From a bacterium (GTDB lineage: Bacteria; Patescibacteriota; Minisyncoccia; Phycocordibacterales; Phycocordibacteraceae): DNA of 64,000 bases. The position numbers and the translations under genes are program-made. This document shows positions 16,989 through 33,413 of the stretch, piece by piece. Position 1 is the stretch's first letter. Each line of letters opens with the position of its first letter. A model generated the notes under the pieces. That model was given only the letters and a program-made list of their open reading frames with translations. It had not been told where the DNA came from and did not search any database. The DNA lies in contig JAHFML010000001.1 of assembly GCA_023269085.1 (NCBI GenBank), positions 11,966 through 75,965 on the forward strand. The letters run 5' to 3'.

Positions 16989-17000
16989 TCCCCGCTTCAC

Positions 17001-17804
17001 TCAAGCGAAATCCGCGAATCGCTGATAGAAACGGTAGCGCTCCTTCGCTTTGGCGATGCGTGCCATGATCTCCTGCTGGCGTAATGCTGTCGTCCGATCC
17101 AAGACGGACTGCAATACATACTCCCGCAAATCTGCCTGCGCAGTCTTCAGCAAAGTCTCAACGCCTGAACAATATTTACCGCAGACCGCACTCGCCGAAG
17201 AGACTTCGCGCAAGAGATGTTCCATCTTCGACGCTTCGAGGAGCTGAAGCACCGTGTCGACGCCCGAGCTCCACGCAGGAACATCCCCCGAAAGCTCTGT
17301 TGTGAACAACTTATCGAGGAAGACAGTCGCGACCGCTCCGACATACAAGAAACGTCGCCGTGGCTGAGCAGAACCCCAGAGAAGCAGAGCGTCATCAAAC
17401 GAGACAACCTCTTCCTTCCGCTTCGAGGCAATGATATGGCCATGATAATTCCCTTCGTTCTCATCGGGCTTTCGTGCAAACGAAAACATCGAAAGTACGA
17501 CACCGCCATTCGCATCCTCCGTTTCTCCGAAACGACCAATGCCAATTGCCTCGAAGAGGTGTACGAAACGAAGTATGTTGATCGTCCCGACGGAAAAGGG
17601 CTTCCTGTCCCGCGCCACCTTGAGCGACACAAAACACTTCCCTTTCAGGTTCTCTGCCATTTCTGCAATTTCGACTAACTGCTCAGGAACCGGATTGCCA
17701 TCTTCACCAATGCTGCAGGTAAGAAATGTTTCTCCGTTCTTTGATTTCGTCACGGCATAGGTCCCTTCCGGAATCGGTGCCAAGAGATTTCTGATTTCGC
17801 ACAT
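17001..17804 (-). CDS. Hypothetical protein
   Basis: GGAGG SD before ATG 17804; 267 aa. Confidence 0.6.
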   Translation of the reverse strand: MCEIRNLLAPIPEGTYAVTKSKNGETFLTCSIGEDGNPVPEQLVEIAEMAENLKGKCFVSLKVARDRKPFSVGTINILRFVHLFEAIGIGRFGETEDANGGVVLSMFSFARKPDENEGNYHGHIIASKRKEEVVSFDDALLLWGSAQPRRRFLYVGAVATVFLDKLFTTELSGDVPAWSSGVDTVLQLLEASKMEHLLREVSSASAVCGKYCSGVETLLKTAQADLREYVLQSVLDRTTALRQQEIMARIAKAKERYRFYQRFADFA

Positions 17805-17900
17805 AATTATCCTCCAAAAAATAAATGAACTACTTGGAACATATAACCACAAATATCCTACTCGTACAAGAAACCGCCCGCTCGCTTCGCTGAAGGTCTA

Positions 17901-18182
17901 TTACGCGATGAGCCCAGGATACCGCTTGTCGATATCTGTTTGAATCTCTTTGGCTTCACGAAGAAGCTCGGCGTCTTTTACCGATGCTAAAATCTCGAAT
18001 ACGATATCGAGCTTTGCGATGATCGCGACACCCTCTTCATGAGATTGGATATTCCCATCAAGATCTTGATGCATCTCTGAGACAAGGCGCGTGGCGTGGT
18101 TGCGTGGTGACTCTCGTTCGATACAAGCATCGTGACGCACACCCTGCATGAACGATGCAAACCCCTGGCTCCATTTTTCCAT
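17901..18182 (-). CDS. Hypothetical protein
   Basis: ORF with -10-like TACTAT 8 nt before ATG. Confidence 0.55.
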   Translation of the reverse strand: MEKWSQGFASFMQGVRHDACIERESPRNHATRLVSEMHQDLDGNIQSHEEGVAIIAKLDIVFEILASVKDAELLREAKEIQTDIDKRYPGLIA

Positions 18183-18318
18183 ATACTCATATAGTAGCAC
18201 CCAAAGCGAAACCATAGGCCCCTCACCGCGACCCTACCACCAACCGAGCCCTGCGCTCGGTTTTTTATTTCATCTGGTGCTTTGTACCAAGAGTAAGAGT
18301 TTGCGTGGGACGATTTGC

Positions 18319-18795
18319 TTAATTAAGCATCCAGATCGAGAAGTTGAGATACGCCGCGAAGCTCACCCAGAGAATATATGGCACCAGAAGCCAAGCGGCT
18401 GGTTTGGAGATTTTAGCGAAAGCGATGATCGTGGCGAGAATGGCAAGCCAGAGGAAAATAATCTCAACAAGCGCACCGCCGGGAGAATGCAGACCGAAAA
18501 AGATAATTGACCAGAGCGTGTTCAACGCCAGCTGGCCGATAAATATGCCGAGAGCTATTTTCACATCTCTGCGCCCTACCCCCTTTCTCCAGACCAAGAA
18601 CGCCGCGATACCCATGAGCGCAAAGAGTGTCGTCCAAACCGGACCGAATACCCATGCTGGAGGATTGAGCGCCGGCCGAGCGAGCGTGGAATACCAGCCG
18701 GCAATGGATGGAGTTGTAAAGACCGAACCGATGATGCCGGCAAGCTCGGAAACGACAATGGCGATAATGAGTTTAAAGGTGTTGTTTATTTTCAT
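18319..18795 (-). CDS. tspO: TspO/MBR family membrane protein
   Basis: WY..L.RP..NPP.WVFGPVWT, LLVPYILWVSFA. Confidence 0.95.
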   Translation of the reverse strand: MKINNTFKLIIAIVVSELAGIIGSVFTTPSIAGWYSTLARPALNPPAWVFGPVWTTLFALMGIAAFLVWRKGVGRRDVKIALGIFIGQLALNTLWSIIFFGLHSPGGALVEIIFLWLAILATIIAFAKISKPAAWLLVPYILWVSFAAYLNFSIWMLN

Positions 18796-18859
18796 ATTTT
18801 TATTTTACAAACGCATCAGAAAAAATCATCTGCTCTTTGCCCTTTCTTGATTTATAAGC

Positions 18860-18899
18860 GGGTCTGTCCACTTTCGGAATATCCTTAATTTTTTGTCAT
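18860..18899 (-). pseudogene. Frameshifted, truncated 5' remnant of a radC-like gene
   Basis: Removing one A from an A6 run gives MTKIKDIPKVDRP, resembling the RadC N-terminus. Confidence 0.45.
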
Positions 18900-19063
18900 G
18901 ATTGTTTTAATAAGTTCATCATAACAAACTGTCGGGCTCTTTTTCTGAAGGTATATTATCAAGCACTCTGCTCCGCATGGTCCGGGCGGTCAGGATAGCT
19001 TCGTGATGGCTATCATTGGAATTAGCAACGAGCTAATTCCAATCGGTTAGAGTTAGGGTAATT

Positions 19064-19810
19064 TCAGGTAGCGCTTCCCGTCGCAAGACTGGATTTGAAA
19101 TCAGTAAACAGCGCGTCGGGGCCGATTCCAAGAACAGATTCATACTGCCACCCGTTCTCGTCTGGCGTCGCGCCACGTTGCAACGCTGTGTAGAATTTGA
19201 AGTATGCTTCTTTGCCAAACCGAGTGATGAGGTAATCGGAAAAGAGCGCGGCGAGCGCGTAGTACTGGCGGGCAAAGTCGTCGGGCGTATCGAGCCACGC
19301 TTGATGCGAGACGAGAAGATCAGGCGAAAAAGTGAAGTGCTGATCGCTCATCGCCTCACGCACCGTACCGGTAAATGAATTGCCAAACCAGTCGTGCCCT
19401 ACCATTCGCTCGGCGAGCCCTTCTTGGATGAAGCCGACGGCTAAGCCGAGCGGCAGCGAGAGGAGATGCATATCTTCGTGCGGACCGATGATGCGATGTT
19501 CTTCGGTATAGAGCGCGTGCACGGCGAAATCGGCATAGACGGATTGCGCGAACCATGGATTCCCCATCAGTCGCTTCTTTGTATCGGCGTCTGGATAGAA
19601 ATAATAGGAAATGCTACGTTCGGGTGCCGGCAGATTGAGAAAGTCGAGAATATCGACACATGCCTTCTCTTGCGTCTCTACGATATAGTCAATCTCTTTC
19701 TCAGCAAGTGAACCGGCAACGTAGTGGGAGCGGTAGTGCGGCGATTCGCGCACGATCCACGGCGCGGTCTTGAACGCTTCGATGTAGCCGGGCAGATGTT
19801 GCTCAAACAT
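19064..19810 (-). CDS. Putative zinc metallopeptidase (gluzincin-like)
   Basis: HEDMH followed by FIQEGLAE. Confidence 0.65.
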   Translation of the reverse strand: MFEQHLPGYIEAFKTAPWIVRESPHYRSHYVAGSLAEKEIDYIVETQEKACVDILDFLNLPAPERSISYYFYPDADTKKRLMGNPWFAQSVYADFAVHALYTEEHRIIGPHEDMHLLSLPLGLAVGFIQEGLAERMVGHDWFGNSFTGTVREAMSDQHFTFSPDLLVSHQAWLDTPDDFARQYYALAALFSDYLITRFGKEAYFKFYTALQRGATPDENGWQYESVLGIGPDALFTDFKSSLATGSAT

Positions 19811-20159
19811 GAAAAGACTCTGGCATAGAGAACGGCCGCACCCGTATCGCCAACACGCCCTGCTTCTGCTCATCTTCGCGTGAATAGTATTGGTACATGG
19901 CCGAATACTCTTCTCTGCTCGCGCGTCCATACTGCTCGGGCGGGAATGCCGCATAGAGTTCTTGGAAGGTTGCAAATTGCAGGAGCTCCGATACTTCTGT
20001 CTCAATCTTTTGCTCTGGATCAGTCGCGAGTGAGAATTCTATCTCGTCGCCCACCTTCAGGAGCTGGCGCTTCTCGTCGTTGAGCCGAGCTTCAATCGTC
20101 TTACTCCCCTCTCGCATCTTCTCAAACTGATCGGGCTGTAATTTCATTTGGTGCTTCAT
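19803..20159 (-). CDS. ASCH domain protein
   Basis: GSKTIEARLNDEKR..LKVGD.I.F. Confidence 0.9.
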   Translation of the reverse strand: MKHQMKLQPDQFEKMREGSKTIEARLNDEKRQLLKVGDEIEFSLATDPEQKIETEVSELLQFATFQELYAAFPPEQYGRASREEYSAMYQYYSREDEQKQGVLAIRVRPFSMPESFHV

Positions 20160-20222
20160 GTTGCGACTATTCTATATCAAAACCTGATCCCCGCCTCACC
20201 AACATAGTGGACGGGGACAAGA

Positions 20223-20789
20223 TTAAATATTCATACTTTGGTTGCGGAGATTCGTTTTAACTTCCTTATAGTTAGGAAGCATCTTGCCAACAAGACTCCA
20301 AAACTTCTTTGAATGATTGAATTCGCGCAGATGGCATAACTCATGGACGATCACATAGTCACGAGCGTCCATGGGCAGAAAGAGTATCTTGTAATTGAAA
20401 TTAAGATTCCCTCTCTTTGAGCAACTTCCCCACCGAGTCTTCTGATTTTTAATGTTGATCTGACTGAAGCTGAACTGGTAGATAGTATTAAAGTAATTTA
20501 CTCGTTCTACTGCGAGCGCATATGCTTCGTCCTTATATTTCAAGTAATCAGCCTTGCTATGACGAGCGACCGCCTTCCCGCTGAACTGTTTGAAGAACGC
20601 AATCTTTTTGAAAAGCCAGTCTGTCTTCTCTCGAATAAACTTTTCGACAACCGTCTCCTTGAGATCAAAGGGCGACGTGACCACAATCGTACCGTCACAA
20701 TATACTGCGAGACGCATCCTGCGAGCGCGATGACTTTTCCGAAGTGTATAGGTGATCTTTTTATCCTGAAGAGCTATTTGTTTCTCCAT
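20223..20789 (-). CDS. YgjP/SprT-like zinc metalloprotease associated with type I RM
   Basis: TRWGSCS, YVIVHELCHL..NHS..FW; immediately after hsdR. Confidence 0.9.
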   Translation of the reverse strand: MEKQIALQDKKITYTLRKSHRARRMRLAVYCDGTIVVTSPFDLKETVVEKFIREKTDWLFKKIAFFKQFSGKAVARHSKADYLKYKDEAYALAVERVNYFNTIYQFSFSQINIKNQKTRWGSCSKRGNLNFNYKILFLPMDARDYVIVHELCHLREFNHSKKFWSLVGKMLPNYKEVKTNLRNQSMNI

Positions 20790-20791
20790 GA

Positions 20792-23698
20792 TTAGAATTT
20801 CTTCATTACAATATCGACCAAACGATTGAGATATTTGTGGAAGTCACTGACCTGAATACGATCCCGATACTCCTTAAGAACCAGCTCCTGCACGATGCGC
20901 TTCACCTCTTTCAAGAATTCATCGCGCTTGGATGACTCCTGCCATCCCTCGTCGAGAATATTTTCGAGACGATTGGTCATGTCCTTGATGAATTCACGAA
21001 CAATATCTTTATCTCCCCCAACGAACTCCGTCGAAACGACATAGAGACCGTACTCCTTGAGTGAATACCCGAGCTCTTTAGCTTCATCGCCTTTCTTCTT
21101 TATGTCGGCAAGGAGCTCCTGATACCGCTTGATGCGTTCCGAGAGATCAATCTGGTGCTGCTCGAATTCTTTGCGGATTAATCCCAGACGCTCACTGAAC
21201 TTTTTATACGCCGGATTCGTGTCTATGTTGATTGAGATCTCTTGTTTGAGCATCTTCTCGAGATTGAGTGCTTTCTCTTCGTCATCCATCTTGTTGAGCC
21301 GCTCCATGACATAGAGATCATTCACATTGAGCTCGCGGAAGTTCTTGGTGATACCTTCGTAATCAACGCGTTGCTGTATGAGTAGCTTCACCTTCTCCCC
21401 ATACTCCGCGAGAAGTTCAGCATCTGACATCTTCTCGCTGTACTCCTTTTCGAAGGCGAGATAAACGCTCGTAAGCCACTCGAATGTTCGCACAGACTCT
21501 TTCAAGAAAGGATCCGGCGAAAGAATCTCAAACAGAAGTTTGAGCCGTGCATATTTGCCCCGGAAGAACTTCTGCTTGTCGAGATTCTCTGCAAAGATCT
21601 TGAGACATCGACGCAAGTTATCAATAGACGGATCTTCGATATTAATGCCCGTAAAGATATCCATGGTCTCTCTAAGCACCTCGATAAATTCTTCTTTGAG
21701 TTTATCGATATTGAGCATCGCCGAATCAACGATACTCTCGTCAAAATTGAGTGCTTGATAGAGACTCTTGGTAATGCCGTAATAGTCGATGACCTTCCCT
21801 GCCCCCTTGTTTGGATAGACCCGATTGGTGCGCGCAATCGCTTGGAGCAGATTGTGATCCCAAAGCGGCTTGTCGAGATACATCACTTGTTCAACTGGCG
21901 CGTCAAAACCAGTCAGAAGCATGTCGCAGACGAGCAAGAATTTGAGTGAGCTGGTTGGGTTCTTGAATTCGTTGATTATCTTCTCACGCTTCGCCTTTGT
22001 CGTATTGTACTTACGCAAGTCCTCTGAATCCGTATTCGGGTCACCCGGCGAATAAACCACTTCTGACCATTCCTTCGGTACCAGTTGGTCGAATAACTTT
22101 TTATACTTTGCGACTGCCTCGCGGTCATAACAAACAACCTGCGCTTTGAATCCAGACGGCTCTACATACAGACGGTAATGCTCGACAATGTCCCGAGCCA
22201 CCGCCTCCATACGTCGGTCGAGCTTCACGATTGCTTCTTTCTTTCCATACTTCTTTGCCACCACATCACGCTCCTTATCTGAAAGGTCGGTCGTTAGCTC
22301 TTCGAACTGCTTATCGAGCTTCTCGTCATCAATAAAGAATTTAGAAAGCCGCGCTTCGTAGGTCACAGGGAGCGTTGCGCCATCATCGATAGCTTGTTGG
22401 ATGGAATAGTAATCCAAGTATCGCTCTCCTTCTTCTCCGAAGTTGCGGTGCGTATTGAGAGTAACTCGATCGATCGGAGTACCAGTGAAGCCAAAGAAGA
22501 ACGCATTCTTCATCGCGCTTCGCAGATTGATAGCCGACACGCCCTCGTTGTCGCGATGCGCTTCATCCGAGAGCACGATGACATTCTCATCGAGATTCTC
22601 GATATCCTTACCAAGTTCCGAGAACTTCTGGATAGTCGTGATGAAAACTCCACGCTCCGGTGACTGTATTTTCTTCTCCAAATCAGCTCGCGACTCCACC
22701 CGAACCACATTTTTACCGCCGCAATTGACGAAGGTCTCATATATCTGGTCATCAAGATCAATGCGGTCGACGAGAATGAATACCTTCGGATTCTTGAGCT
22801 CTTTGTTGTAGCGGAGCTTCCATGCGGTGAAGAACATGGTGAGCGACTTCCCCGAGCCTTGGGTATGCCAGATGAGCCCGCGCTTTTTATCTCCTTCAAG
22901 CACCCGCTCGACAATCTTGTTGGTAGCCCGCAATTGCTGATATCGCGCGATCTTCTTGATCGTCTGTTCCTTCTCCTTCTCGAAGAGAATAAAGTTCTGA
23001 ATGATATCCAGAAGTCGCTCCTTCTCAAGAAGCGAGACGAGTGTCGCCTCAAGATTCCCTTCTTCAGATTTCTCAAGTTCATCATCTTTCCATTCCAAGA
23101 AGTACTGCACTGGCGCATAAGTTGCTCCATACACTGTCTTCAATCCGTCAGTCGCTACATTGAAACAGTTTGGCCAAAAGAGTTTAAACGCGTTCCGCTC
23201 GTAACGCTTGATCTGTCCGACTGCGTTTGCATAATCCACATTAGTTGCAGCTGTAGGGCTCTTGGCCTCTATATCGACTACTGGCAAGCCGTTCAGAAAT
23301 ATCATTATGTCCGGGCGGATGTTTTCGGAATTACCCTCAAAATAGAACTGATTAGTGACGACGAAGTGATTATTGGCAGGAGTAGTAAAATCTACGATGA
23401 AGTAGTCGCGCATTTTGCCCGTCTGCGGATCCTTGAGATTTACCCCATTGCGCATGACATTCAAGAACGCCTCATTGTTATCGACCTTCTTCACCTCGCG
23501 CACTACCGAAAGTGCCTCGTCATCTTCAATTCCGTTTATCTTCTTCACCGCTTCGAGCAAAAGCGATGTAATGATGTATTCATTCTCAAACTCGCGCAAT
23601 TTCGCAAATTCCGTAGGCACAACATATTCGTATCCCAAACGCTCCCGAAGAAACTTCAGGATATGATTCTCGACCGTGTATTGTTCGTTGAATTTCAT
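20792..23698 (-). CDS. hsdR: Type I restriction subunit R
   Basis: RPD...IEAK nuclease motif, HTQGSGKS, DEAHR, FTGTP, MLLTGFDAP, QAIARTNR. Confidence 0.97.
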   Translation of the reverse strand: MKFNEQYTVENHILKFLRERLGYEYVVPTEFAKLREFENEYIITSLLLEAVKKINGIEDDEALSVVREVKKVDNNEAFLNVMRNGVNLKDPQTGKMRDYFIVDFTTPANNHFVVTNQFYFEGNSENIRPDIMIFLNGLPVVDIEAKSPTAATNVDYANAVGQIKRYERNAFKLFWPNCFNVATDGLKTVYGATYAPVQYFLEWKDDELEKSEEGNLEATLVSLLEKERLLDIIQNFILFEKEKEQTIKKIARYQQLRATNKIVERVLEGDKKRGLIWHTQGSGKSLTMFFTAWKLRYNKELKNPKVFILVDRIDLDDQIYETFVNCGGKNVVRVESRADLEKKIQSPERGVFITTIQKFSELGKDIENLDENVIVLSDEAHRDNEGVSAINLRSAMKNAFFFGFTGTPIDRVTLNTHRNFGEEGERYLDYYSIQQAIDDGATLPVTYEARLSKFFIDDEKLDKQFEELTTDLSDKERDVVAKKYGKKEAIVKLDRRMEAVARDIVEHYRLYVEPSGFKAQVVCYDREAVAKYKKLFDQLVPKEWSEVVYSPGDPNTDSEDLRKYNTTKAKREKIINEFKNPTSSLKFLLVCDMLLTGFDAPVEQVMYLDKPLWDHNLLQAIARTNRVYPNKGAGKVIDYYGITKSLYQALNFDESIVDSAMLNIDKLKEEFIEVLRETMDIFTGINIEDPSIDNLRRCLKIFAENLDKQKFFRGKYARLKLLFEILSPDPFLKESVRTFEWLTSVYLAFEKEYSEKMSDAELLAEYGEKVKLLIQQRVDYEGITKNFRELNVNDLYVMERLNKMDDEEKALNLEKMLKQEISINIDTNPAYKKFSERLGLIRKEFEQHQIDLSERIKRYQELLADIKKKGDEAKELGYSLKEYGLYVVSTEFVGGDKDIVREFIKDMTNRLENILDEGWQESSKRDEFLKEVKRIVQELVLKEYRDRIQVSDFHKYLNRLVDIVMKKF

Positions 23699-23704
23699 AT
23701 TCGT

Positions 23705-24595
23705 TTATTTCTTCTGTCCATTTCTTAAGATGACAAAACGTATTAGCGAGCCGGTCATGCTAACTACCATCTCCGAATCGTCTCTGTTAAATTCTTTGCA
23801 TGTACCGTGCTTTATTTCATCCATCCAGTTGCGTAAGTTTTTGAAAAGTTCTTTTTGATGACCATTCAATCCTAGAGCTTTTGAGTCGGTCTTGTCTGAT
23901 ATATGCTTAAAACCTTTTTCTCTTTTGCCAGATACTGATTTTACCAACTCATCGCAAGCCGTGTACATGTCCTCAATAACATCTTTGTAGTGCGCTTGTG
24001 TCTTCGCTGTCAAAAATTCCTTTAGCCCATTTTCAAAATGAGAAAGAACGTGTTCAAATCTTTCGTCCGTCTCTAGTAATCCAAGGGTATTTTTAATATC
24101 CGTCTCAAATTTCTTTGAAGTAGTTGGCAAGATCTGTGGCGCTTTTCGTTTATAGATCTTTATGGTCACCCCTAGCATAGGAAAATCATTGAGATATTTT
24201 TCTATACGTTTCGCAAGTTGATCTAATTCAGCTCGCACAAAATCATGTTCTGCTACAACATTCAGCAATACTTGTAATCGCAACAAATATTCTTCGAAAG
24301 ATCCTGAGAAACGGTCTGATATCTCACCGTCAATCATTCGCTTCAATCCAGATGAATAATCTGTGCCATACCAATCGTCGATATCAAAAAATAACTGGCG
24401 ACACACTTCATCTAATATAGCCGACTGAAGTTCCCAGAGTTTTGTACTGTCTTGATACACACTAGGAGAGATGATCGGCCCCAATGCATCGATGATTTCA
24501 CCCTTTAAATATTTCTTGCACCCGACTCGAACACTCTCAATATTGAGTTTGAGTCCAAAGCGGGAATATAAATCTTGATTTGTATTATTGTTCAT
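23705..24595 (-). CDS. Unknown AT-rich protein between hsdS and hsdR, possibly AbiJ/HEPN-like
   Basis: 296 aa, coupled to hsdS; helical C-terminus with RNWMDEIKHG. Confidence 0.7.
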   Translation of the reverse strand: MNNNTNQDLYSRFGLKLNIESVRVGCKKYLKGEIIDALGPIISPSVYQDSTKLWELQSAILDEVCRQLFFDIDDWYGTDYSSGLKRMIDGEISDRFSGSFEEYLLRLQVLLNVVAEHDFVRAELDQLAKRIEKYLNDFPMLGVTIKIYKRKAPQILPTTSKKFETDIKNTLGLLETDERFEHVLSHFENGLKEFLTAKTQAHYKDVIEDMYTACDELVKSVSGKREKGFKHISDKTDSKALGLNGHQKELFKNLRNWMDEIKHGTCKEFNRDDSEMVVSMTGSLIRFVILRNGQKK

Positions 24596-25809
24596 ACTTT
24601 TACTCTTTGCTTTCCACTCAACAAATCCTGCATCAGACCTTTTTTCAGTCCTGTGAGTTTTTCCTTCAACTCCTGATTGATCGTCATTTTATCGTCAACC
24701 GATGAAAGCACTTCGGAGATTTTCTTAATCTCATCAATGTTTGATGGCTTCGGAATTGGAATGGAGAACAGCCTATCCTTGTTGAGTTTTGGTTGAGCCA
24801 TGCCAGTTAGAAAAGGCTCGAGATTGATCATATTCAGATAGTCTTGTATATACTTCTGAAGAAATCGATCTTCAAACCTTTGAAGGTGTGCATGATTATT
24901 TACCCAATATTTTCCAATAGCAGTAAAAGCAATCGGGTAATTCCTATCTTTTAGATTCGCGCCATCTTCTGAAATCAAGAGCAACTCTTCATCAAATATA
25001 TAGTCGCCAACATAATCCACAATTCCTGTTGCCCCATAATAAGGATAAGATCCTGATTCACGCTTTGATTTGGTAATAGGAATTCGCTTGTTATCTAGAT
25101 TAGATGAAATATCATTTAGGTTCACAATTTCCCAATCTCTTGGAATCTCACCGATCTCAGTTTTCTTATATTTTGTATGGCCAATGCCTTTGGTAAAAAG
25201 TTGCTGTGTCAGTCCGTGCTTGAGCTTTTTGGTCATAGCAATAATCTCGTCAGTTTTCTGAATTTCTTCATCGACAGAGGTGAGAATCTCAGCAATCTTC
25301 TTTTGTTCCTGCTTGGACTCTGGGAAGAGTATGCTTACTCCCAGAAAATCGTGCTTGGATAGATTAAAACGTGTACTACCTTTTGCATGCGCAGCAATTT
25401 CTTTCCTGAAGACAGACCCTCTGAAAAGGTAGCCTCCGAAAGTTGGATCGAGCAGGTCCTTCTCGGGACGGAATATGAAACAGAAACTGTTCAAATACAA
25501 TTCCACTGGGTCCGAGACCACAGCGGAAGACATTCCGACCTCCTCCGGAGTTTCAGAGCTGGTCGTAAAAATATAGTCCCCATACCGTATCTGATTTTGT
25601 CTCTCTCCATCTTTTATCTCCACGAGGTTAGTAAAATCTTTGTCAAGATGAGGATTACGAAAGACATTCATGTATGGAATGAATGGTCTTCCACTACCAA
25701 AATCTTTCTTAGATTTCCCAGTAAGACCTCCTAAGGTATTACCTAGATCCTCAAGCTTTACTCGTTTCCACTGTGGAGGAACGTTGCGTTGTGAAAGTTT
25801 ACTACTCAT
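24592..25809 (-). CDS. hsdS: Type I specificity subunit S
   Basis: Two TRDs with conserved EQKKIAEIL...LKHGLTQQL and LKKGLMQDLL repeats. Confidence 0.95.
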   Translation of the reverse strand: MSSKLSQRNVPPQWKRVKLEDLGNTLGGLTGKSKKDFGSGRPFIPYMNVFRNPHLDKDFTNLVEIKDGERQNQIRYGDYIFTTSSETPEEVGMSSAVVSDPVELYLNSFCFIFRPEKDLLDPTFGGYLFRGSVFRKEIAAHAKGSTRFNLSKHDFLGVSILFPESKQEQKKIAEILTSVDEEIQKTDEIIAMTKKLKHGLTQQLFTKGIGHTKYKKTEIGEIPRDWEIVNLNDISSNLDNKRIPITKSKRESGSYPYYGATGIVDYVGDYIFDEELLLISEDGANLKDRNYPIAFTAIGKYWVNNHAHLQRFEDRFLQKYIQDYLNMINLEPFLTGMAQPKLNKDRLFSIPIPKPSNIDEIKKISEVLSSVDDKMTINQELKEKLTGLKKGLMQDLLSGKQRVKV

Positions 25810-27616
25810 CTTTAAATTCAATCTCGGTGAAGAGCGCCTTGATGTTCGCTTTTGTGCCATCACTCAACGTAACTTCCCCGGCCCTTGCCTTCTGAAGAAA
25901 CTTGCGTGCAAGCAAAACCTTATCGGGCTTCGGGTTCAGATTCTTGATGTATTCAGAATTTGCGGAAGTATAGACCAGAGACTCGTCTTCCATAACATAA
26001 TTCTTAAAATCCTCTGGGCTGAATATGTCCGCAATGGTTGATCCGTCTTTTTTGAGAACCGTCTTGATGGCATCAGGCAGAACTTTCCATGCCTTCAAGT
26101 TTTTGACCCCATCTTTCTTCCCTTGATCATTATCAAAAAGATAATGTACATCTGCGCCCCACCCCTCCAATATTGTTCCCACGATGCCCATGTTTGGAGC
26201 ACCACCACCATTTATAAAGTTGGTTTTAAGATCTTTCTTTTCAAGCTCCTTGAAAGCACGAAGAAAGAATACATCCTCTGGACCTTCTACGACCACGTTG
26301 TCCTTCTGATCGAGATTGGTGATCGAGTCATTAATGCCGAGGCCGATTGCAGTAAGGATAGGAGTGAGTGTTTCCTTATCAGCAGTCGGGTGTGCATGTA
26401 TCTTCCCCAAGATCTTAGTGCCCGTCCCATCTGAAGGCTTCTCGACGAGCCTGATGTTCTCGAGGTTGTCTTCGGTAATAAGGTAAGGGGAATGTGTGGA
26501 GAAGACGACTGGATTTTCATTCGTGTGTGCCAACAAAACCTGAAGAAGGTCTTTCTGTGCTTTTGCATGCAGGTAAAGTCCCGGTTCATCAATTAGTATG
26601 ACGTTGGGTTTATCTTCCTGAAGCCTTGCAACAATCTTCACGTAAAATGACAAGTACCACTGCTGACCCTTACTTCGTTGTGACGGATAGTAAAGTTTGT
26701 TATTTTCAACGATCCAGAAGTTTATGTCGGTGCCGTCTTTCTTCACCTGTAACTTTATCTTGTCTTGAGTCCAATATTTATCGAACTTCTCCGAGAAGTC
26801 GACGTTTACGGAAGTCTCGTGATTTACTTGCTCTTGTTGATTGGTCGAGGCCATCTTTGCGGTCGAGAAATTACTGACATGCTCAAGATCTTGAGCCCAT
26901 TCATTCGATGTAAGTGAGGCGATTGGGATTGATTTCGGGAACTCATCATCAAAAGATGAGAAGAGAACAAAATATGGCAACTGTGATTTTACAAACTCTG
27001 CAACAAAATCTGTCACGAGCTTCTCCTGAGCGTAGTAATCGTCAGACATTTTTTCTATCATGATCACTTCGGCGACTACATCTGTAAGGCCCGCATTCTG
27101 GGACTTAAAAGTTACAACTTCTGTCTTAAAATCACTAAGTTTCTTTTTTTCGAGGTTTGGAAACTTAACACCGGCTCCTGAGGATTTGATCAGAGCATCT
27201 ATCTTCTTGATAGACTCTTGGATCTGTTTCTTGGAGATTTCATAAATATTTGGGAGATTAATTTGCTTACGTGACTCTGGATCAACGATATACGTCGTGA
27301 CTCCGAATTTCTTGGTTAATGTAATTACTGCATCCTTTGTAACGGTTTTATCAGTACCGATAGCCTTAAGAATTTCATTCGTCTCAGAGTCCGGAAGAAC
27401 AAAAGTGATGGATATCTCTGGAACACCTTCGCCATCTATTGGTTTGGCTTCCTGTCTGATAGTTTTATCTTGATGGAAATCCTCCAATGCTTCCAAAACA
27501 GATGTCTTTCCGGATTCATTCTTACCGGCAAGAATGGTCAGTTTCTCGCTGAAATAACAGTCGCCTGAATCAACAATAGACTTATAGTGCTTGATTCTAA
27601 ATTTGGTGAGTTTCAT
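25802..27616 (-). CDS. OLD-family ABC ATPase-TOPRIM nuclease
   Basis: Walker A GKNESGKT, Walker B LIDEP, STHS, TOPRIM VVEG..D and DND. Confidence 0.85.
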   Translation of the reverse strand: MKLTKFRIKHYKSIVDSGDCYFSEKLTILAGKNESGKTSVLEALEDFHQDKTIRQEAKPIDGEGVPEISITFVLPDSETNEILKAIGTDKTVTKDAVITLTKKFGVTTYIVDPESRKQINLPNIYEISKKQIQESIKKIDALIKSSGAGVKFPNLEKKKLSDFKTEVVTFKSQNAGLTDVVAEVIMIEKMSDDYYAQEKLVTDFVAEFVKSQLPYFVLFSSFDDEFPKSIPIASLTSNEWAQDLEHVSNFSTAKMASTNQQEQVNHETSVNVDFSEKFDKYWTQDKIKLQVKKDGTDINFWIVENNKLYYPSQRSKGQQWYLSFYVKIVARLQEDKPNVILIDEPGLYLHAKAQKDLLQVLLAHTNENPVVFSTHSPYLITEDNLENIRLVEKPSDGTGTKILGKIHAHPTADKETLTPILTAIGLGINDSITNLDQKDNVVVEGPEDVFFLRAFKELEKKDLKTNFINGGGAPNMGIVGTILEGWGADVHYLFDNDQGKKDGVKNLKAWKVLPDAIKTVLKKDGSTIADIFSPEDFKNYVMEDESLVYTSANSEYIKNLNPKPDKVLLARKFLQKARAGEVTLSDGTKANIKALFTEIEFKDE

Positions 27617-27623
27617 AGACGCA

Positions 27624-29309
27624 TCAATAATTCAATTCGTTAAGAAAGCCCTCGACCTTTTTATCTATTTCCGCTCGTTCTTTCTCCAGCGCCACGAGCT
27701 CCTTACGCACCGCAGACACATCGATCTCTTCCTCCTTGTCGCCATTCTCGATATAGCGACGAACATTGAGATTGAATTCGTTCTCTTCGATTTCTTTGAG
27801 ATCTATTACGCGAGCATAGTTCTCGACATCAGCGTAGTTGTCGTAGGCGCGGATAATCTTCTGAATGTCTTGCACGCGAAGCGAGTTCTGATTCTTCCCT
27901 TCGGAGAAGTCCTTTTCGGCATCAATGACAAGCACCTTGTCCTTGCGATTCTCTGGTTTGTTCTTGTTGAAAATGAGAATGGCCGCTGGGATGCTGGTGC
28001 CGTAGAAGAGTTTGGACGGGAGTGCGATTACCGCTTCAAGAAGGTCGTTCTTGAGCAGTTGCTCGCGGATACGCCCCTCTGCGCCACCACGGAAGAGGAC
28101 ACCATGCGGGAGCACAATGCCCGCGCGACCATTTGAATTCATCGACTTGATGATGTGGAGGACAAAAGCATAGTCGGCGTTCTTGTCCGGTGGCATATCA
28201 TAGCCATCGACGCGACCGTATTTGTCGAATTTGAAGAGTTCGTATTCCCAATCCTTGATTGAGTAGGGTGGGTTCGCAACCACAATATCAAAAGTCTTGA
28301 GCGAACCGTTTGGATTGAGGAATTGCGGATTCACGAGTGTATCGCCGCGCTGTATGTCAGCACTGTCGAGTCCGTGCAGGAACATGTTGATCTTGGCAAT
28401 GGCGTAGGTCCCGATGTTGAGCTCCTGACCATAGAGATAAAGAGTGCGGGCAACTGACTCACCCTCTTTCTCTTTCAAGTGATGAAAGGCCTCGAGAAGG
28501 AAACCGCCCGATCCGACCGTCGGGTCATAGATATGGTCCTTCTTGTGCGGTTTAAGAATCTGAATGATCACACCTTCTACTTCGCGTGGGGTATAAAATT
28601 CTCCGCCTTTCTTGCCTGCGTCAGCCGCGAATTGCTTAATGAGATATTCATAGGCATCGCCGAGCAGATCGGAATTGATATAGGTATCACCGAAGTTGTA
28701 CTGCGAGAAATGATTGAGAAGACGCTGAAGCGTCTCATTCGGGAAGCGATCCTTATTAGCAAAATCGAGATCGTCAAAAATCTTATCAAGCTTCGGGCTA
28801 TTGGCATTCGCAAGCTTCTCGAAGACCTCGTTGAGCTTCACGCCGATGTTTTCTGCGCGTTCCTCGATAACTGACCAACGACACTCCTTGGGGACCTGGA
28901 AGCGATGATTATAATCGGCGCGGGCGATCGTTTCATCCTTGAATTCATCCATTACCCGCGCGTACTCCTCGTCCCACACGTCGCTGATGCGCTTATAGAA
29001 AAGAAGTCCGAAGATGTATTTCTTGTAATCCGAGCTGTCGATCTTACCACGAAGGATGTCGGCGCTCTTCCAGAGAAATTGTTCGAGCTGTGGCAGAGTA
29101 AGTTTGCTCCCCATCTTGTCGACGATCGTCTGAATGTCCTGTGGGCGATACTTACGATCGCCGCGCTTACCAGCACGAAGAGGCACCAAGATCCCATCTT
29201 TCTCCCAATTGCGAAGAGTATCGGGGTGGATATTAAAAATTTCGGCTACCTGGCCGATAGAGAGCAAATCTGGCATGTCTTTAAGCTTTGCTTGAATATC
29301 TTTTCGCAT
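27624..29309 (-). CDS. hsdM: Type I methyltransferase subunit M with N-terminal MerR/excisionase-like HTH
   Basis: LSIGQVAEIFNIHPDTLRNWEKDG HTH, then LWKSADILRG, GEFYTP, DPTVGSGG, NPPY. Confidence 0.95.
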   Translation of the reverse strand: MRKDIQAKLKDMPDLLSIGQVAEIFNIHPDTLRNWEKDGILVPLRAGKRGDRKYRPQDIQTIVDKMGSKLTLPQLEQFLWKSADILRGKIDSSDYKKYIFGLLFYKRISDVWDEEYARVMDEFKDETIARADYNHRFQVPKECRWSVIEERAENIGVKLNEVFEKLANANSPKLDKIFDDLDFANKDRFPNETLQRLLNHFSQYNFGDTYINSDLLGDAYEYLIKQFAADAGKKGGEFYTPREVEGVIIQILKPHKKDHIYDPTVGSGGFLLEAFHHLKEKEGESVARTLYLYGQELNIGTYAIAKINMFLHGLDSADIQRGDTLVNPQFLNPNGSLKTFDIVVANPPYSIKDWEYELFKFDKYGRVDGYDMPPDKNADYAFVLHIIKSMNSNGRAGIVLPHGVLFRGGAEGRIREQLLKNDLLEAVIALPSKLFYGTSIPAAILIFNKNKPENRKDKVLVIDAEKDFSEGKNQNSLRVQDIQKIIRAYDNYADVENYARVIDLKEIEENEFNLNVRRYIENGDKEEEIDVSAVRKELVALEKERAEIDKKVEGFLNELNY

Positions 29310-29322
29310 ATCTATACGCCTC

Positions 29323-29374
29323 ATCCTATCGCCGCACAAATATAATGTCAAGCGTTCATAGGTCTTCATAGGTC
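29323..29374 (-). promoter_or_regulatory. hsdM promoter with tandem 10-bp direct repeats
   Basis: TTGACA-17 bp-TAGGAT on the minus strand; TTCATAGGTC x2 at 29355-29374. Confidence 0.55.
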
Positions 29375-29475
29375 TGCATCCTAACTTACGGCTTAAAATA
29401 AGGATAATCTGGTTACCAACAGCTCGGATTTGTGCTCTGGACTTCAAAGACGGTCTGCGTCATTCATTGGGTTAT

Positions 29476-30804
29476 ATGGAAACAGCCGCAATTCGCACCC
29501 CAATGACATTCGAGCAAGCCGTTACAAGCCCCGTTCGATACTGCCTCTATGCCCGCAAGAGCACCGAACAGGACGAGCTTCAAGCCGACTCGCAGATCAA
29601 GGAGATGAGCGAGGCGGCCATCAGAGACGGATTGGAGATAGCTGAAGTCAGAAAAGAATCGCACTCGGCCAAGGAGTCTGGCCAGCGACCGGTCTTCAAG
29701 AAGATGCTCGAAGATATACGCAGAGGTATGTTCAACGGCATCATCGCGTGGGATCCATCCCGTATAAGCCGCAACGCTGGAGACCTCGGATCAGTCGTCG
29801 ATCTAATGGACCAGAAGCTTATCGTCGATATCCGAACGCATGGGCAACGATTTACCAACTCGCCGAATGAGAAATTCCTCTTGATGATTCTCTGTAGCCA
29901 GGCGAAGCTCGAGAATGATCATAAGGGAGAGAACGTGAAGCGCGGTCTCCGAGCGAAGTGCGACATGGGATATCGACCCGGCGTCTCGCCGATCGGTTAC
30001 ATCCATGACAAATATGCTGACAAAGGACAAAAGCGCGTTCTCGTCGATCCTAAGCGTGCGCCGATTGTCAAGCAGATGTTCGAGAAGGTCGCGTACGAAG
30101 ATTGGAGCGGTCGCGACTTGCATGAATGGTTTGTGCAAACCGGCTTCATGACCCGATCTGGCAAACGTGTGGCGCTCTCGGGCATCTACAGGATGCTCAA
30201 GGATACTTTCTATTACGGGGAGTTCGAATATCCTGAAGGGAGCGGAAAAATCTACCGAAGTGCCGTCGAGTCAATTATAACGAAGGAGCTATTCCTCAAG
30301 GCCCAAGCAAATCTGCAGGCTCCCCCACGCAGACATCCCGGCACCAACGAGTTCGGATTCACCCGCCTCTTCATCTGTGGCGCGTGCGGCTCCGGTATCA
30401 CTGCCGAAGAAAAGTTCAAGAACCTCAAGAATGGTGCTCGCAATCGGTATGTTTATTATCACTGCACTCGGTATAACGATAAACGCTGTAAAGAGAAACC
30501 GATTCGTGAAGAAAACCTTGTTGAGCAATTGCTGCGGATTATCGACAAGGTCGATAACAATGAGATTGGTGCCCGTGCGCAGATCGGTAAAGAGGTCGCG
30601 CGATATCGTCAGATTGCTTATGGCGTCCTCGGTTACGAACCAGAGCTTGTTCGAGTACCGCCTGAAGCCGATGTGAGACAGTACACGAAGCACGTACTCA
30701 AGTACGGCACCAAGGAAGAGCGGCGGGAGATAATTGGGTGTCTCGATGGAAGAATTGAACTCAAGAGCAAGAATCTTGGTATACGAATCTTTGCAGAATG
30801 CTAA
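29476..30804 (+). CDS. Large serine recombinase
   Basis: YARKS catalytic motif, SRISRN, recombinase domain, CGACG zinc ribbon. Confidence 0.93.
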   Translation: METAAIRTPMTFEQAVTSPVRYCLYARKSTEQDELQADSQIKEMSEAAIRDGLEIAEVRKESHSAKESGQRPVFKKMLEDIRRGMFNGIIAWDPSRISRNAGDLGSVVDLMDQKLIVDIRTHGQRFTNSPNEKFLLMILCSQAKLENDHKGENVKRGLRAKCDMGYRPGVSPIGYIHDKYADKGQKRVLVDPKRAPIVKQMFEKVAYEDWSGRDLHEWFVQTGFMTRSGKRVALSGIYRMLKDTFYYGEFEYPEGSGKIYRSAVESIITKELFLKAQANLQAPPRRHPGTNEFGFTRLFICGACGSGITAEEKFKNLKNGARNRYVYYHCTRYNDKRCKEKPIREENLVEQLLRIIDKVDNNEIGARAQIGKEVARYRQIAYGVLGYEPELVRVPPEADVRQYTKHVLKYGTKEERREIIGCLDGRIELKSKNLGIRIFAEC

Positions 30805-30813
30805 GATTCGGTA

Positions 30814-31347
30814 ATGACATACGCTCAAGCCGAAGCTTCATTTGGACGCTTCAAAGAGAGATTGCGCGAGCGTCTTGGTCTTAAAAAAGTCAAGAAACAA
30901 GTGCACGATCAGCGAACCAAAGATACTTTCGCAAAATCAGATCCTGACACCAAGATGAAAGTAATTGGGCCGCAGTTGGAATTCTTCACATCCTCCGTGT
31001 CGCGGAAGTCTGATCTACTCCCGACAATAGCAACACTTGTAGCTACTTTGATAGTTGTTGCTACTTTGAATCATGATTTGGTACCTCTACAGCCAAAAGA
31101 GACGAAAACGATTTTGACTCTATTCCTCATACTTATTCCAAGCACTCTGCATTACTACATAAAGCTTATGGAACGTACTGCCAGACAAGCTGTCGATGTA
31201 ATCGATTCATATCAAGGATTTAACGCCTTTGATAAACTTGGGCCGATTTCTTTCTTGCAATACCTAAGTTCCGATATTCCGATAATTATTGTCTATATTC
31301 TCTATGGGGTCGTCGGGCTTATAATCTTTAGAGTTTGGTTCGGATAG
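30814..31347 (+). CDS. Hypothetical membrane protein
   Basis: Three hydrophobic segments; AT-rich. Confidence 0.65.
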   Translation: MTYAQAEASFGRFKERLRERLGLKKVKKQVHDQRTKDTFAKSDPDTKMKVIGPQLEFFTSSVSRKSDLLPTIATLVATLIVVATLNHDLVPLQPKETKTILTLFLILIPSTLHYYIKLMERTARQAVDVIDSYQGFNAFDKLGPISFLQYLSSDIPIIIVYILYGVVGLIIFRVWFG

Positions 31348-31360
31348 GTGCTTCCATAAC

Positions 31361-31394
31361 GACCCATCCCCGGCCTTTCGGACGGGGATGGGTC
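31361..31394. terminator. Hairpin between the convergent gene and tRNA
   Basis: GACCCATCCCCG...CGGGGATGGGTC. Confidence 0.55.
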
Positions 31395-31452
31395 GGTTGC
31401 ACAGGATTCATCTGCTCCGCGGGTAGGATTCGAACCTACGACCAACTCGTTA

Positions 31453-32029
31453 CACGTTGCCTCTTGTTACCAAGAGAGTGGACTATATCATCACCCGTAT
31501 CTGTTCTCACAGATCGAGGGTGCGAGGCGCTTCGTCCTTCGATTATTCTCAGGACTACTCCCTTGCGGGATAGTCTCTACACCTTCCTCTCGACATGCGC
31601 CGAGAGACTTGGCTCGGGATTGCCCACAGCATTTCCTCTGTTAGGGGTTCCCCGAATTCACCTCGTGTTCGACCTGAATCTCTTCAGGAAGCTGCGTAAT
31701 GCCTGCGTGCACTTCACGGTGACAATTCGCACAAACAAGAGCGCATTTATCGATTTCTTCTTTGATTTTTTCCCATGATCTCGTGAGCCCTTTTGTCGAG
31801 AGACCGAAGTCTTTCTTCGTAGGATCTTTATGGTGAAAATCAAGCGCTCCTGAATAACGATCGTAACCGCAAATAATGCACTTCCCGCCTTTGTACTCAC
31901 GCGCCATTTCTCGAAGTTTTTTACGACGTTCAGTAACAGCTTTGCGCAAATACTCTGCACGGTCGGCATAAGTCCTTTTTTCTTTTGGCATACTCAGATA
32001 AGTATACCATTGGGTTTCGGACTTGAACC
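31453..32029 (-). ncRNA. Group I self-splicing intron
   Basis: Exon ends in U and intron ends in G; IGS GCAGC pairs with exon GCUGU; P AATTCGGGGAA, Q AATCCCGAGC, R GTAGAGACTA, S GATATAGTCC; P3 and P7 pairings present. Confidence 0.9.
31641..31991 (-). CDS. Intron-encoded HNH endonuclease
   Basis: CIICGY...LDFHH...CANCHREVH zinc-finger HNH motif. Confidence 0.88.
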   Translation of the reverse strand: MPKEKRTYADRAEYLRKAVTERRKKLREMAREYKGGKCIICGYDRYSGALDFHHKDPTKKDFGLSTKGLTRSWEKIKEEIDKCALVCANCHREVHAGITQLPEEIQVEHEVNSGNP

Positions 32030-32150
32030 ACAGCGAGCCGCTCTACCACTGAGCTACCGCGGAATATTTTTAGCACCAGAACACTCACCCACCTCGCTAT
32101 GAGGCGGTGTTCATAGTCTACCTGAAAAATCGCGAGCCGCAACAGCGACA

Positions 32151-32498
32151 CTAGGAAGCGACGGGGAGGCCAGCGGCAACCCAGGCGAGGAGGCCGCCCG
32201 AGACGCTTCGTGCCTGCGGCACGCCGTGCGCGTGGAGAATATCGACCGCGTGCGCGCTCCGTGCGCCCGAGCGGCAGATGACATCGATTGTCTCGTAGGC
32301 ATTCAATTCGCCTACCTTGTCTTCGATCTCATCGAGCGGGATATTGAGCGCGCCCTCGATGCCCTGTTCTCTGACCTCCGCGGGTGTGCGGACATCGAGC
32401 AAGAGGCCGCCCGGCTTCCCGAGGCGTGCGAAAGCCTCAGCGGGAGCGATGCTGGGCGTCGAGGGGAAGAATCCAAACATATGCAGAAAGGATAGCAT
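32151..32498 (-). CDS. Rhodanese-like protein
   Basis: LLDVRTP.E, CRSGARS, GGLLAW. Confidence 0.9.
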   Translation of the reverse strand: MLSFLHMFGFFPSTPSIAPAEAFARLGKPGGLLLDVRTPAEVREQGIEGALNIPLDEIEDKVGELNAYETIDVICRSGARSAHAVDILHAHGVPQARSVSGGLLAWVAAGLPVAS

Positions 32499-32519
32499 TC
32501 CGCTATACTGCGAACAATC

Positions 32520-33413
32520 ATGCCGAAGAGCCGCCGCGCACAGAAAATTTTTTATCTCGTCTATGCCGTTATGCTCGTCAGCGGCGTGTTCCTTGTCGCG
32601 CAATCAGCAGTACCAATAAACGGGCGTGAGAAGAACGACGAAACTCGCTATGCTGAGACCCCCGCCACCGCGACTATCCCCGCGAAGGCGGCGAGCGGCT
32701 CGTCGCAGGACGAGGCGCTCGCCGTACCGATCTTGGTTTATCATATCGTGCGGCCATCCTACCCGAGCGATAGTACGGAGGTGAAAAAGCTCGCTCATAC
32801 TCCCGAAATCTTCGACGCGGAGCTCTCCTATCTCGCCGCCGCGGGGTACCACATCGTGCCCCTCGCGGCGCTCGTGAGCCATATCACGCGCGAGACACCG
32901 CTTCCCCCGCACTCCATCGTTATCACCTTCGACGACGGCTGGCGCGACCAGTTTGAATACGCCTTCCCTATTTTGAAAAAATATCACGCCACCGCAACCT
33001 TCTTCATCTTCACCAACGCCATCGGCCGGCACGCGTTCATCTCGTGGGACAATCTGCGCGAGATGCTCGCCGCGGGCATGACGGTCGGTGCGCATTCGCG
33101 CTCGCACCCCTTCCTCACCAAGATCACCGATCCCTCGAAGCTCTGGGACGAGATTAGCGGAAGCAAAGTGATCATTGAGAAGAACCTCGGTGTGCCGGTC
33201 ACCGCCTTCGCCTACCCCTTCGGCCAATACAACGCGAGCTCAACCACGCTCGTCGAGAAAGCCGGCTATACGGCCGCGCGCGGCGATTACGTGAACAAGA
33301 AGATACCGCAGTCGTTCTCAAATAGATACATTCTCAACGCGCTCAACGCACCTGTCACGCTCGATCGCTTCGAATACGCCTTCCCCGCTCCAGCTACGAC
33401 GACGGCTCGATGA
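32520..33413 (+). CDS. Polysaccharide deacetylase
   Basis: PILVYH, ITFDDG, HSRSH, FAYPFG. Confidence 0.93.
   Translation: MPKSRRAQKIFYLVYAVMLVSGVFLVAQSAVPINGREKNDETRYAETPATATIPAKAASGSSQDEALAVPILVYHIVRPSYPSDSTEVKKLAHTPEIFDAELSYLAAAGYHIVPLAALVSHITRETPLPPHSIVITFDDGWRDQFEYAFPILKKYHATATFFIFTNAIGRHAFISWDNLREMLAAGMTVGAHSRSHPFLTKITDPSKLWDEISGSKVIIEKNLGVPVTAFAYPFGQYNASSTTLVEKAGYTAARGDYVNKKIPQSFSNRYILNALNAPVTLDRFEYAFPAPATTTAR

Follow-up and report, generated by a model that had tools for sequence, protein, structure and literature searches.

A group I intron with a putative HNH homing endonuclease splits the sole tRNA-Asn gene of a Patescibacteria genome and is very likely excised in nature

Group I introns leave their host RNA by two-step transesterification, an established chemistry (reviewed in PMC3984707). 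For bacterial tRNA genes 21 classes of such introns were described with tFind, the four classical tRNA classes being of type IC3, and introns longer than about 400 bp may hold genes (Williams 2020, bioRxiv 10.1101/2020.01.27.920355). The word "Asn" does not occur in the text of that paper, whose class table is an image. Like the introns described there, the intron analysed here lies in the anticodon loop and is bounded by U-1 and omega-G; the classical classes are labelled IC3 there, and 44 of the 47 related introns compared here possess P7.1/P7.2. A 2025 preprint by Nakagawa, Amikura, Omae and Suzuki (bioRxiv 10.1101/2025.07.03.662931, cited in PMC12641178) deals with tRNA genes of Patescibacteria that have group I introns at a "novel insertion site". 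As far as its title tells, host group and kind of element are the same as here, and the title matches what an earlier reading of this DNA, made from the letters alone (the sequence-only reading), had said of reports on tRNA introns in Patescibacteria. The site is reportedly 35/36 in tRNA-Asn and tRNA-Asp, and to judge from what is accessible of that work the 35/36 insertion site appears to be already published.

A cyanobacterial tRNA-fMet intron with its own endonuclease was described by Bonocora and Shub (2001, cited in PMC3984707). Both that intron and ours, as far as the citing review goes, are chromosomal group I introns in a tRNA anticodon loop that encode an endonuclease for the anticodon region, putatively so in our case; they differ in the tRNA and the site, and the nuclease here is an HNH protein of about 105 aa. 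The cyanobacterial enzyme is said to be I-Ssp6803I, with a PD-(D/E)xK fold. In collaborative (trans) and intronless homing a single target is shared by a free-standing nuclease and an ORF-less intron, and the gene of the nuclease may enter the intron afterwards; the review's cases are two phage systems (PMC3984707), whereas here one family occurs in three arrangements on bacterial chromosomes, with relatives in phages. T4 SegB, a GIY-YIG nuclease, homes from a tRNA cluster and recognises a T-arm motif (PMC2330249); the tRNA-cluster setting is common to both, whereas the nuclease here is of HNH type. A group I intron database paper (PMC11835236) mentions neither HNH nor Patescibacteria in the accessible portion of its main text, and within the running texts covered by our literature search we found no study of HNH genes in tRNA-Asn introns or of a tRNA-Asn-linked HNH family.

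By the window we mean the whole stretch of DNA analysed, 64,000 nucleotides in length. It belongs to a genome assembly of 710,721 bases (0.71 Mb) in 14 contigs that is rated 100% complete. The tRNA gene consists of the following parts:

32063-32030, minus strand: 5' exon of tRNA-Asn(GUU), 34 nt, ending in CUGU (G34-U35), U35 being the U-1 of the splice site
32029-31453, minus strand: 577-nt group I intron separating tRNA positions 35 and 36, with its terminal omega-G at 31453
31452-31415, minus strand: 3' exon of tRNA-Asn, 38 nt, from U36 to the discriminator G; CCA is not encoded

When the exons are joined in silico, ARAGORN recognises a cloverleaf of tRNA-Asn(GTT) with the loop CUGUUAA restored, which bears out the sequence-only reading in its claim of a split tRNA-Asn that rejoins to a complete tRNA. 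Of the 151 genus genomes searched, 17 have an unsplit gene that matches the spliced product at 100% identity, and the unsplit relatives carry CTGTTAA at the junction. No Asn isotype is among the 49 unsplit tRNA calls that ARAGORN makes in the assembly, and BLAST across the assembly found no second copy of tRNA-Asn. The split gene is the sole tRNA-Asn of the assembly, so that decoding of Asn would need splicing.

A second group I intron was observed in the same genome outside the window (L032, G000:C9:111901-112117). It is 217 nt long, ORF-less and bounded by U-1 and omega-G, and it matches Rfam with 56.2 bits. Its removal restores a tRNA-Met(CAT) that is split before the anticodon and that ARAGORN mislabels Ser(TGA). 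One other Met tRNA is called in the genome, and the split gene probably encodes the initiator tRNA.

The 3' end of the tRNA-Asn gene abuts an island of low GC content at about 17000-31400 (0.38-0.53 vs 0.57-0.67 on the opposite side), with genes for a large serine recombinase (29467-30804), type I restriction-modification M/S/R, an OLD-like ATPase and a YgjP-like peptidase. A search of the genome for a duplicated, attR-like tRNA 3' end belonging to this island gave none. At 18 of 132 loci, some of which are duplicates, a related recombinase is located close to tRNA-Asn, suggesting that tRNA-Asn may be an integration hotspot. Just past the tRNA, at 31394-31361 on the minus strand, there is a 12-bp GC-rich hairpin (-35 kcal/mol for the region, no U tract, no terminator call) that could be a terminator or a REP-like palindrome.

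We compared the intron with 60 related loci, which were fetched by similarity and form a non-random sample. Four were omitted as their exons remained unpaired, and the 56 settled loci comprise 8 unsplit and 48 split genes. The split loci represent 47 distinct introns, 28 with HNH and 19 ORF-less, extracted under the requirement of a terminal G. Covariation was assessed with all 47 introns anchored and 500 shuffles per helix. The elements of the ribozyme are as follows:

31695-31691, minus strand: internal guide sequence (IGS) GCAGC, pairing with GCUGU of the exon end, the U.G pair lying at the 5' splice site; G+1 of the intron is paired to C31696
31688-31453, minus strand: ribozyme core, P2-P9 including P6/P6a, with P9.0 before omega-G
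31688-31673, minus strand: P2, 277 of 282 cells paired
31665-31659/31529-31523, minus strand: P3, 315 of 329 cells paired
31656-31651/31618-31613, minus strand: P4, 276 of 282 cells paired
position within the core, minus strand: P6a, 250 of 285 cells paired
31577-31571/31485-31480, minus strand: P7, invariant, 282 of 282 cells paired
31570-31559, minus strand: P7.1, 155 of 156 cells paired
31555-31534, minus strand: P7.2, 166 of 196 cells paired
31522-31492, minus strand: P8, 216 of 227 cells paired
31476-31461, minus strand: P9, 195 of 282 cells paired

Judged by sequence and pairing, the insert is a group I intron. The Rfam model RF00028, whose gathering score is 50, reaches 67.5 bits at 31749-31460 (E 5.7e-15), the core covaries over the 47 introns and P7, home of the G-binding G-C pair, is invariant, in agreement with the group I identity and P/Q/R/S elements proposed by the sequence-only reading. 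The position that it gave for the IGS and the U.G pair also held, as did the terminal G of the 577-nt insert. The U.G, G-C, U-A and C-G pairs between IGS and exon are present in 47 of 47 introns, and the first intron base covaries with the base preceding the IGS (GC 36, CG 8, AT 2, TA 1). In P2, P3, P4, P6, P6a, P7.1, P7.2, P8 and P9 the pairing exceeds all 500 shuffles, with many double changes; the latter weigh more, since sequences of common descent can outscore shuffles without any structure. The second pair of P9.0, adjoining omega-G, is C-G in 25 and T-A in 20 of the 47 introns. P5 as drawn showed no covariation (88 of 141 paired, which 191 of 500 shuffles equal). P7.1/P7.2 are a feature of IA-type group I introns; they are present here, and an insert of at least 31 nt is found in 44 of the 47. 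In the ORF-less introns 5-11 nt (32 nt in one case) separate the splice site from the IGS, so that the ORF of the others lies in loop L1.

A P10-like TTA/TAA pairing, also proposed earlier, exists in this intron; TTA is shared by 16 of the 28 HNH-bearing introns and by 1 of the 19 ORF-less ones, so it may simply reflect codons of the HNH gene. These counts do not support P10 as a conserved helix and we dropped it; P9.0 is conserved instead. Apart from P10, all features examined fit membership in group I. As a separate observation, two introns (L003 in G016 and L071 in G049) share a similar long insertion of 127-129 nt in P7.2. An HNH gene is present in L1 of one of them, whereas the other is ORF-less; the host tree does not place their hosts as sisters, so that transfer or recombination between introns is possible.

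The sequence occurs in two groundwater metatranscriptomes (RNA runs X3 and X4) and two DNA runs (X1 and X2); one study supplied the two samples behind all four runs. We mapped the contigs to window positions 30400-33400 in 30 bins; strand, level and true ends are beyond the reach of assembled contigs. Both RNA runs have depth in 7 of the 30 bins, all at the gene, and the absence of RNA cover on the flanks is no argument for silence there. The five records of X3 together span exactly 31453-32029. Record 21 of this run matches from its second base at 32029 and thus has one non-genomic base ahead of intron +1, which fits the addition of guanosine at step 1 of splicing (the letter of the base is not displayed). 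Record 17 (173 nt, depth 7.66) runs from 31595 to 31453 and continues from 31929 to 31900, joining omega-G to an internal position; the numbering convention behind this reading is the one that records 2 and 8 of X1 solely fit. The joint defines one further feature:

31930/31929, minus strand: omega-G back-joint site, cut after CUGA in the register of the IGS, a likely circularisation site that would remove the first 100 intron bases

This site is one of three CUG-N sites within the 334-nt loop. Its mimic of the exon pairs with the IGS at -2.5 kcal/mol, and a stronger mimic, GCUGU at 31936 (-8.0), lies 6 nt upstream. Use of the weaker mimic could reflect circularisation in two steps, a route reported for the Azoarcus intron (PMC13168695), or a library chimera of true RNA ends. 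Neither of the two mimics in L1 is a conserved feature: GCTGT, which falls on Ala-Val codons, recurs in 11 of the 28 intronic genes and in 4 of the 13 free-standing ones, and the joint site after CUGA is confined to this genome among the relatives compared. From the single contig, the joint between omega-G and 31929 is likely a circularisation site.

RNA run X4 contributed one contig of 526 nt that lies wholly inside the intron. In the DNA, X1 holds a contig across both exon-intron junctions; no contig over the middle of the intron was seen in the roughly 78% of X2 examined, a gap to which we give no weight. A ligated tRNA junction of the split gene was not seen in the RNA contigs; the joints of spliced type that the contigs do contain have other anticodon stems and come from tRNA-Asn of other organisms. 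In the two DNA runs alike, the loose ends found at 31452 read as junctions of unsplit tRNA-Asn. The longer of them differs by one base from the 3' exon, and these junctions are therefore likely to stem from other organisms in the water. In summary, cover restricted to the intron, exact ends, the extra 5' base and the back-joint at omega-G make it very likely that the intron is excised in nature, and splicing itself we regard as nearly certain.

The protein-coding part of the intron comprises an ORF and a motif in front of it:

31991-31641, minus strand: HNH ORF, 116 aa, starting in L1 and reading through the IGS, P2, P3 and P4, with its stop in P5
32009-32001, minus strand: extended -10-like motif TGGTATACT in loop L1, 9 nt before the HNH ATG

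The ORF matches Pfam HNH with 22.7 bits (cut-off 21.4) and PHROG HNH families with E 1.8e-31. The PHROG HNH families are likewise matched by 30 of 30 aligned members, in which C38, C41, H53, H54, C87, N89, C90 and H91 are invariant; the HNH assignment of the sequence-only reading is upheld by these matches. The zinc cysteines C38/C41/C87/C90 together with H53/H54 and H91 produce a CxxC...HH...CxxCH layout like that of McrA, Gme HNH, Cap5, IscB and group II maturase HNH domains. In contrast to these zinc HNH nucleases, the protein opens with an N-terminal helix of 26 residues, carries Lys in the Asn position and lacks a separate DNA-binding domain. The place of the middle Asn is taken by a nearly invariant K82, giving an H-K-H variant, and we therefore file the protein as HNH-like by profile and fold, the strict motif being absent. 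The AlphaFold2 model (mean pLDDT 86) comprises the N-terminal helix, the HNH core and a low-confidence tail at residues 105-116. This tail is read-through into the ribozyme, many relatives having their stop codon in P2. The best PDB sequence match is maturase 6me0_C (E 0.0006). Fold searches returned HNH nucleases at the top, none of them significant (no Foldseek hit at E<=0.001; best Z 4.5, rmsd 4.8, 72 aligned), and such insignificant matches speak neither for a new nor for a different fold. A homodimer is predicted, scoring 0.64 against 0.00 for the best control, with 100% contact agreement between runs and pLDDT of at least 81. Of proteins with solved structures, 20 of 30 homodimers attain the mark it passes, as does 1 of 23 single chains; these counts apply only roughly to a prediction made from our own alignment and for a zinc protein.

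Among the 28 HNH introns, 22 show the -10-like motif in their first 60 nt, compared with 0 of the 222 control windows. A sigma-70 scan that requires a -35 box does not list it. It is predicted to be an internal promoter giving a near-leaderless HNH mRNA. The ratio dN/dS is 0.04-0.12 in 10 of 10 intronic HNH pairs and 27 of 28 intronic ORFs are full-length, the remaining one being truncated; by these measures the HNH gene is under purifying selection. A search of the genome assembly gave no second copy of the HNH gene. A second subfamily was also observed (L163-L171, L064, L065, L067), in which an N-terminal CxxHG...RCGKC segment resembling a zinc finger replaces the RTYADR start; in the genus its members are transcribed divergently, 160-210 nt upstream of tRNA-Asn.

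Within the genus the nuclease is tied to tRNA-Asn. HNH matches occur in 40 of 151 genomes, 23 of them with E<1e-18. Twelve of these strong matches lie inside tRNA-Asn introns, ten are free-standing (at a distance of about 200 nt or less) and one is at a contig end, so that 22 of 23 are at tRNA-Asn. The ten free-standing genes adjoin either unsplit tRNA-Asn or ORF-less introns. Among seven weaker matches inspected, four adjoin tRNA-Arg or tRNA-Pro: these distant relatives of 36-48% identity directly adjoin tRNA-Arg(TCT) at L172, L173 and L178 and tRNA-Pro at L177, which suggests sister families with other tRNA targets.

In a sample of the phylum, 47 of 401 genomes have a match at E<=1e-15. The best loci besides the window are all at tRNA-Asn (29 of 29), 26 within an intron, with one ambiguous junction, and 3 directly upstream. 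Adding three loci from a pattern search and the window, at least 30 of the 401 genomes carry the HNH-bearing intron. The sequence-only reading had called ORFs rare in classical bacterial tRNA introns; at the 35/36 site an ORF-bearing copy is not rare in view of this number. The pattern survey of the phylum is insensitive, as most of the 401 genomes show neither pattern and the unsplit one appears in 139; its 25 split-junction matches comprise 22 split tRNA-Asn, 2 tRNA-Thr and 1 unclassed. Named records with close HNH relatives are mostly of Patescibacteria type (Kaiserbacteria, Paceibacterota, Nomurabacteria, Doudnabacteria, Collierbacteria and others). Phage records with an HNH match number 488. 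The six inspected all place it in tRNA clusters, five directly beside tRNA-Asn. In Bacillus phage Bastille (L236, NC_018856.1) the homolog is flanked on one side by a full tRNA-Asn and on the other by a second, shorter one that is annotated as tRNA-Asn, goes uncalled by ARAGORN and is possibly a remnant of the insertion event.

We related the distribution of the intron to host descent with a ribosomal protein tree of 57 genomes, 54 of them with an intron state and a Kaiserbacteria record as nearest named outgroup. Together with the named records that hold close HNH relatives, this outgroup makes it likely that the host belongs to the Parcubacteria-type Patescibacteria. The states unsplit, ORF-less and HNH-bearing require 16 changes on this tree (minimum 2, shuffled mean 22.4), and presence of the ORF requires 8 changes on the tree of intron cores. 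HNH identity hardly follows the identity of host ribosomal proteins (rho 0.16 over 26 genomes): it reaches 78% between hosts of 46-49% identity, yet 67% between hosts of 82%. The AU test did not reject a tree that unites the 12 HNHs from the host clade in one group, as vertical descent would have it (p=0.079), and synonymous sites of distant-host pairs are near saturation (pS 0.65-0.70), leaving a recent long-range jump unproven. Beside free-standing homologs, 12 of 12 unsplit tRNA-Asn genes have an intact GTTAA anticodon loop, one of them being identical to the spliced tRNA of the window. A model in which the insertion protects the nuclease's own genome is thus inadequate for the free-standing copies. 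The active homing suggested by the sequence-only reading is likely in view of purifying selection, patchy spread and the tie to tRNA-Asn; the AU test is the part that does not favour it. Overall, the comparisons make it quite probable that the HNH protein is a homing endonuclease acting on tRNA-Asn genes.

The reading we prefer, at a probability of about 0.72, is a self-spliced 577-nt intron in the sole tRNA-Asn(GUU) gene whose loop L1 encodes a zinc HNH dimer that homes on tRNA-Asn. As sequence and comparison show, the IGS GCAGC pairs with the exon end GCUGU and the core folds into P2-P9, the spliced product being the same as naturally unsplit genes. From group I chemistry, guanosine would attack after U35 and be added to the intron's 5' end, and exon ligation at omega-G would restore CUGUUAA. 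The free intron would then circularise by attack of omega-G on the internal IGS-pairing site 31930/31929. The HNH gene would be transcribed from the extended -10 promoter within L1, its dimer would cut or nick the DNA of unsplit tRNA-Asn, and repair off the intron-bearing copy would transfer the intron. The nuclease may descend from free-standing genes beside tRNA-Asn in phages and bacteria, of which one would have entered L1 of an ORF-less intron at tRNA-Asn, with repeated gain or loss since then.

Competing explanations concern both the tRNA and the nuclease. U-1 and omega-G alone do not fix the junction, since among the nine cut pairs of equal length two combine a U ahead of the cut with a G closing the intron: the Asn junction at 35/36 and one 2 nt upstream, which has a 7-nt loop as well and would give tRNA-Thr(UGU). 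Default ARAGORN finds no tRNA in the 64-kb window and, with its intron search, mislabels the split gene Thr(TGT), much as the sequence-only reading had expected of standard scanners. The Thr label was dropped, because the genome has a separate Thr(TGT) gene of its own and no other Asn gene, the unsplit relatives have CTGTTAA, the IGS pairs with GCUGU in the 35/36 register (positions -1 to -4) in 47 of 47 introns, and the RNA pieces terminate at 32029 and 31453. These lines, which also secure the 35/36 site given earlier, largely refute a spliced tRNA-Thr or a dead tRNA broken by the insertion, and we regard either as extremely improbable. For the nuclease, a different proposal accepts the intron as real and spliced and makes the HNH protein a passenger that is kept at tRNA-Asn for reasons other than homing, be it to aid intron folding, to defend against competing phage DNA or to ride on islands that integrate at this tRNA. 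The free-standing homologs beside unsplit tRNA-Asn with intact loops, the serine recombinase beside tRNA-Asn at 18 of 132 loci and the Lys in place of the canonical Asn would suit it, and strong purifying selection is compatible with any useful function. Against it, the ORF is absent in 19 of the 47 related introns, from which it follows that the HNH protein is dispensable for splicing. The tie to a single isotype in bacteria and unrelated phages is moreover as expected of a site-specific selfish nuclease, and with T4 SegB (PMC2330249) there is already one homing nuclease that is free-standing within a tRNA cluster. We consider such a passenger unlikely.

Less probable still is a former homing enzyme, for which the patchwork would stem from an old acquisition followed by vertical descent and repeated loss of ORF or intron, with little homing now. 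The AU result (p=0.079) and the clustering of states on the host tree (16 changes against a shuffled mean of 22.4) agree with such a history, as do the one truncated ORF and the ORF-less introns with remnants of L1. Decay would however be expected once new targets are lacking, yet dN/dS stays at 0.04-0.12 with 27 of 28 ORFs intact, and precise intron loss would have to recur, the 8 unsplit genomes amounting to 8 changes. The preferred reading, a spliced intron whose nuclease homes on tRNA-Asn, can be extended tentatively, at somewhat less than even odds: a family of very small homodimeric HNH-type enzymes of about 105 aa would target tRNA-Asn in phages as well as Patescibacteria and present all stages in the proposed birth of a mobile intron on bacterial chromosomes, the excised intron would persist in the wild as stable linear and circular RNA, and circularisation within the ORF would silence the nuclease message. 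The stages of this extension are a nuclease gene free beside an unsplit gene, free beside an ORF-less intron, fused in L1 with a tail encoded by the IGS, and lost.

Novelty is tempered by the insertion site being apparently in print and by an element that is common in the phylum sample. With the anticodon split, decoding of Asn in this organism hinges on splicing. Default scans miss such genes or call them Thr, which bears on claims that the tiny genomes of CPR bacteria are poor in tRNAs. The metatranscriptome contigs give a view of excision in nature, and of likely circularisation, in an uncultured bacterium. If site-specific, the HNH protein would be an unusually small DNA-cutting enzyme, and its family is a chromosomal example in which the collaborative-homing route to mobile introns can be tested.
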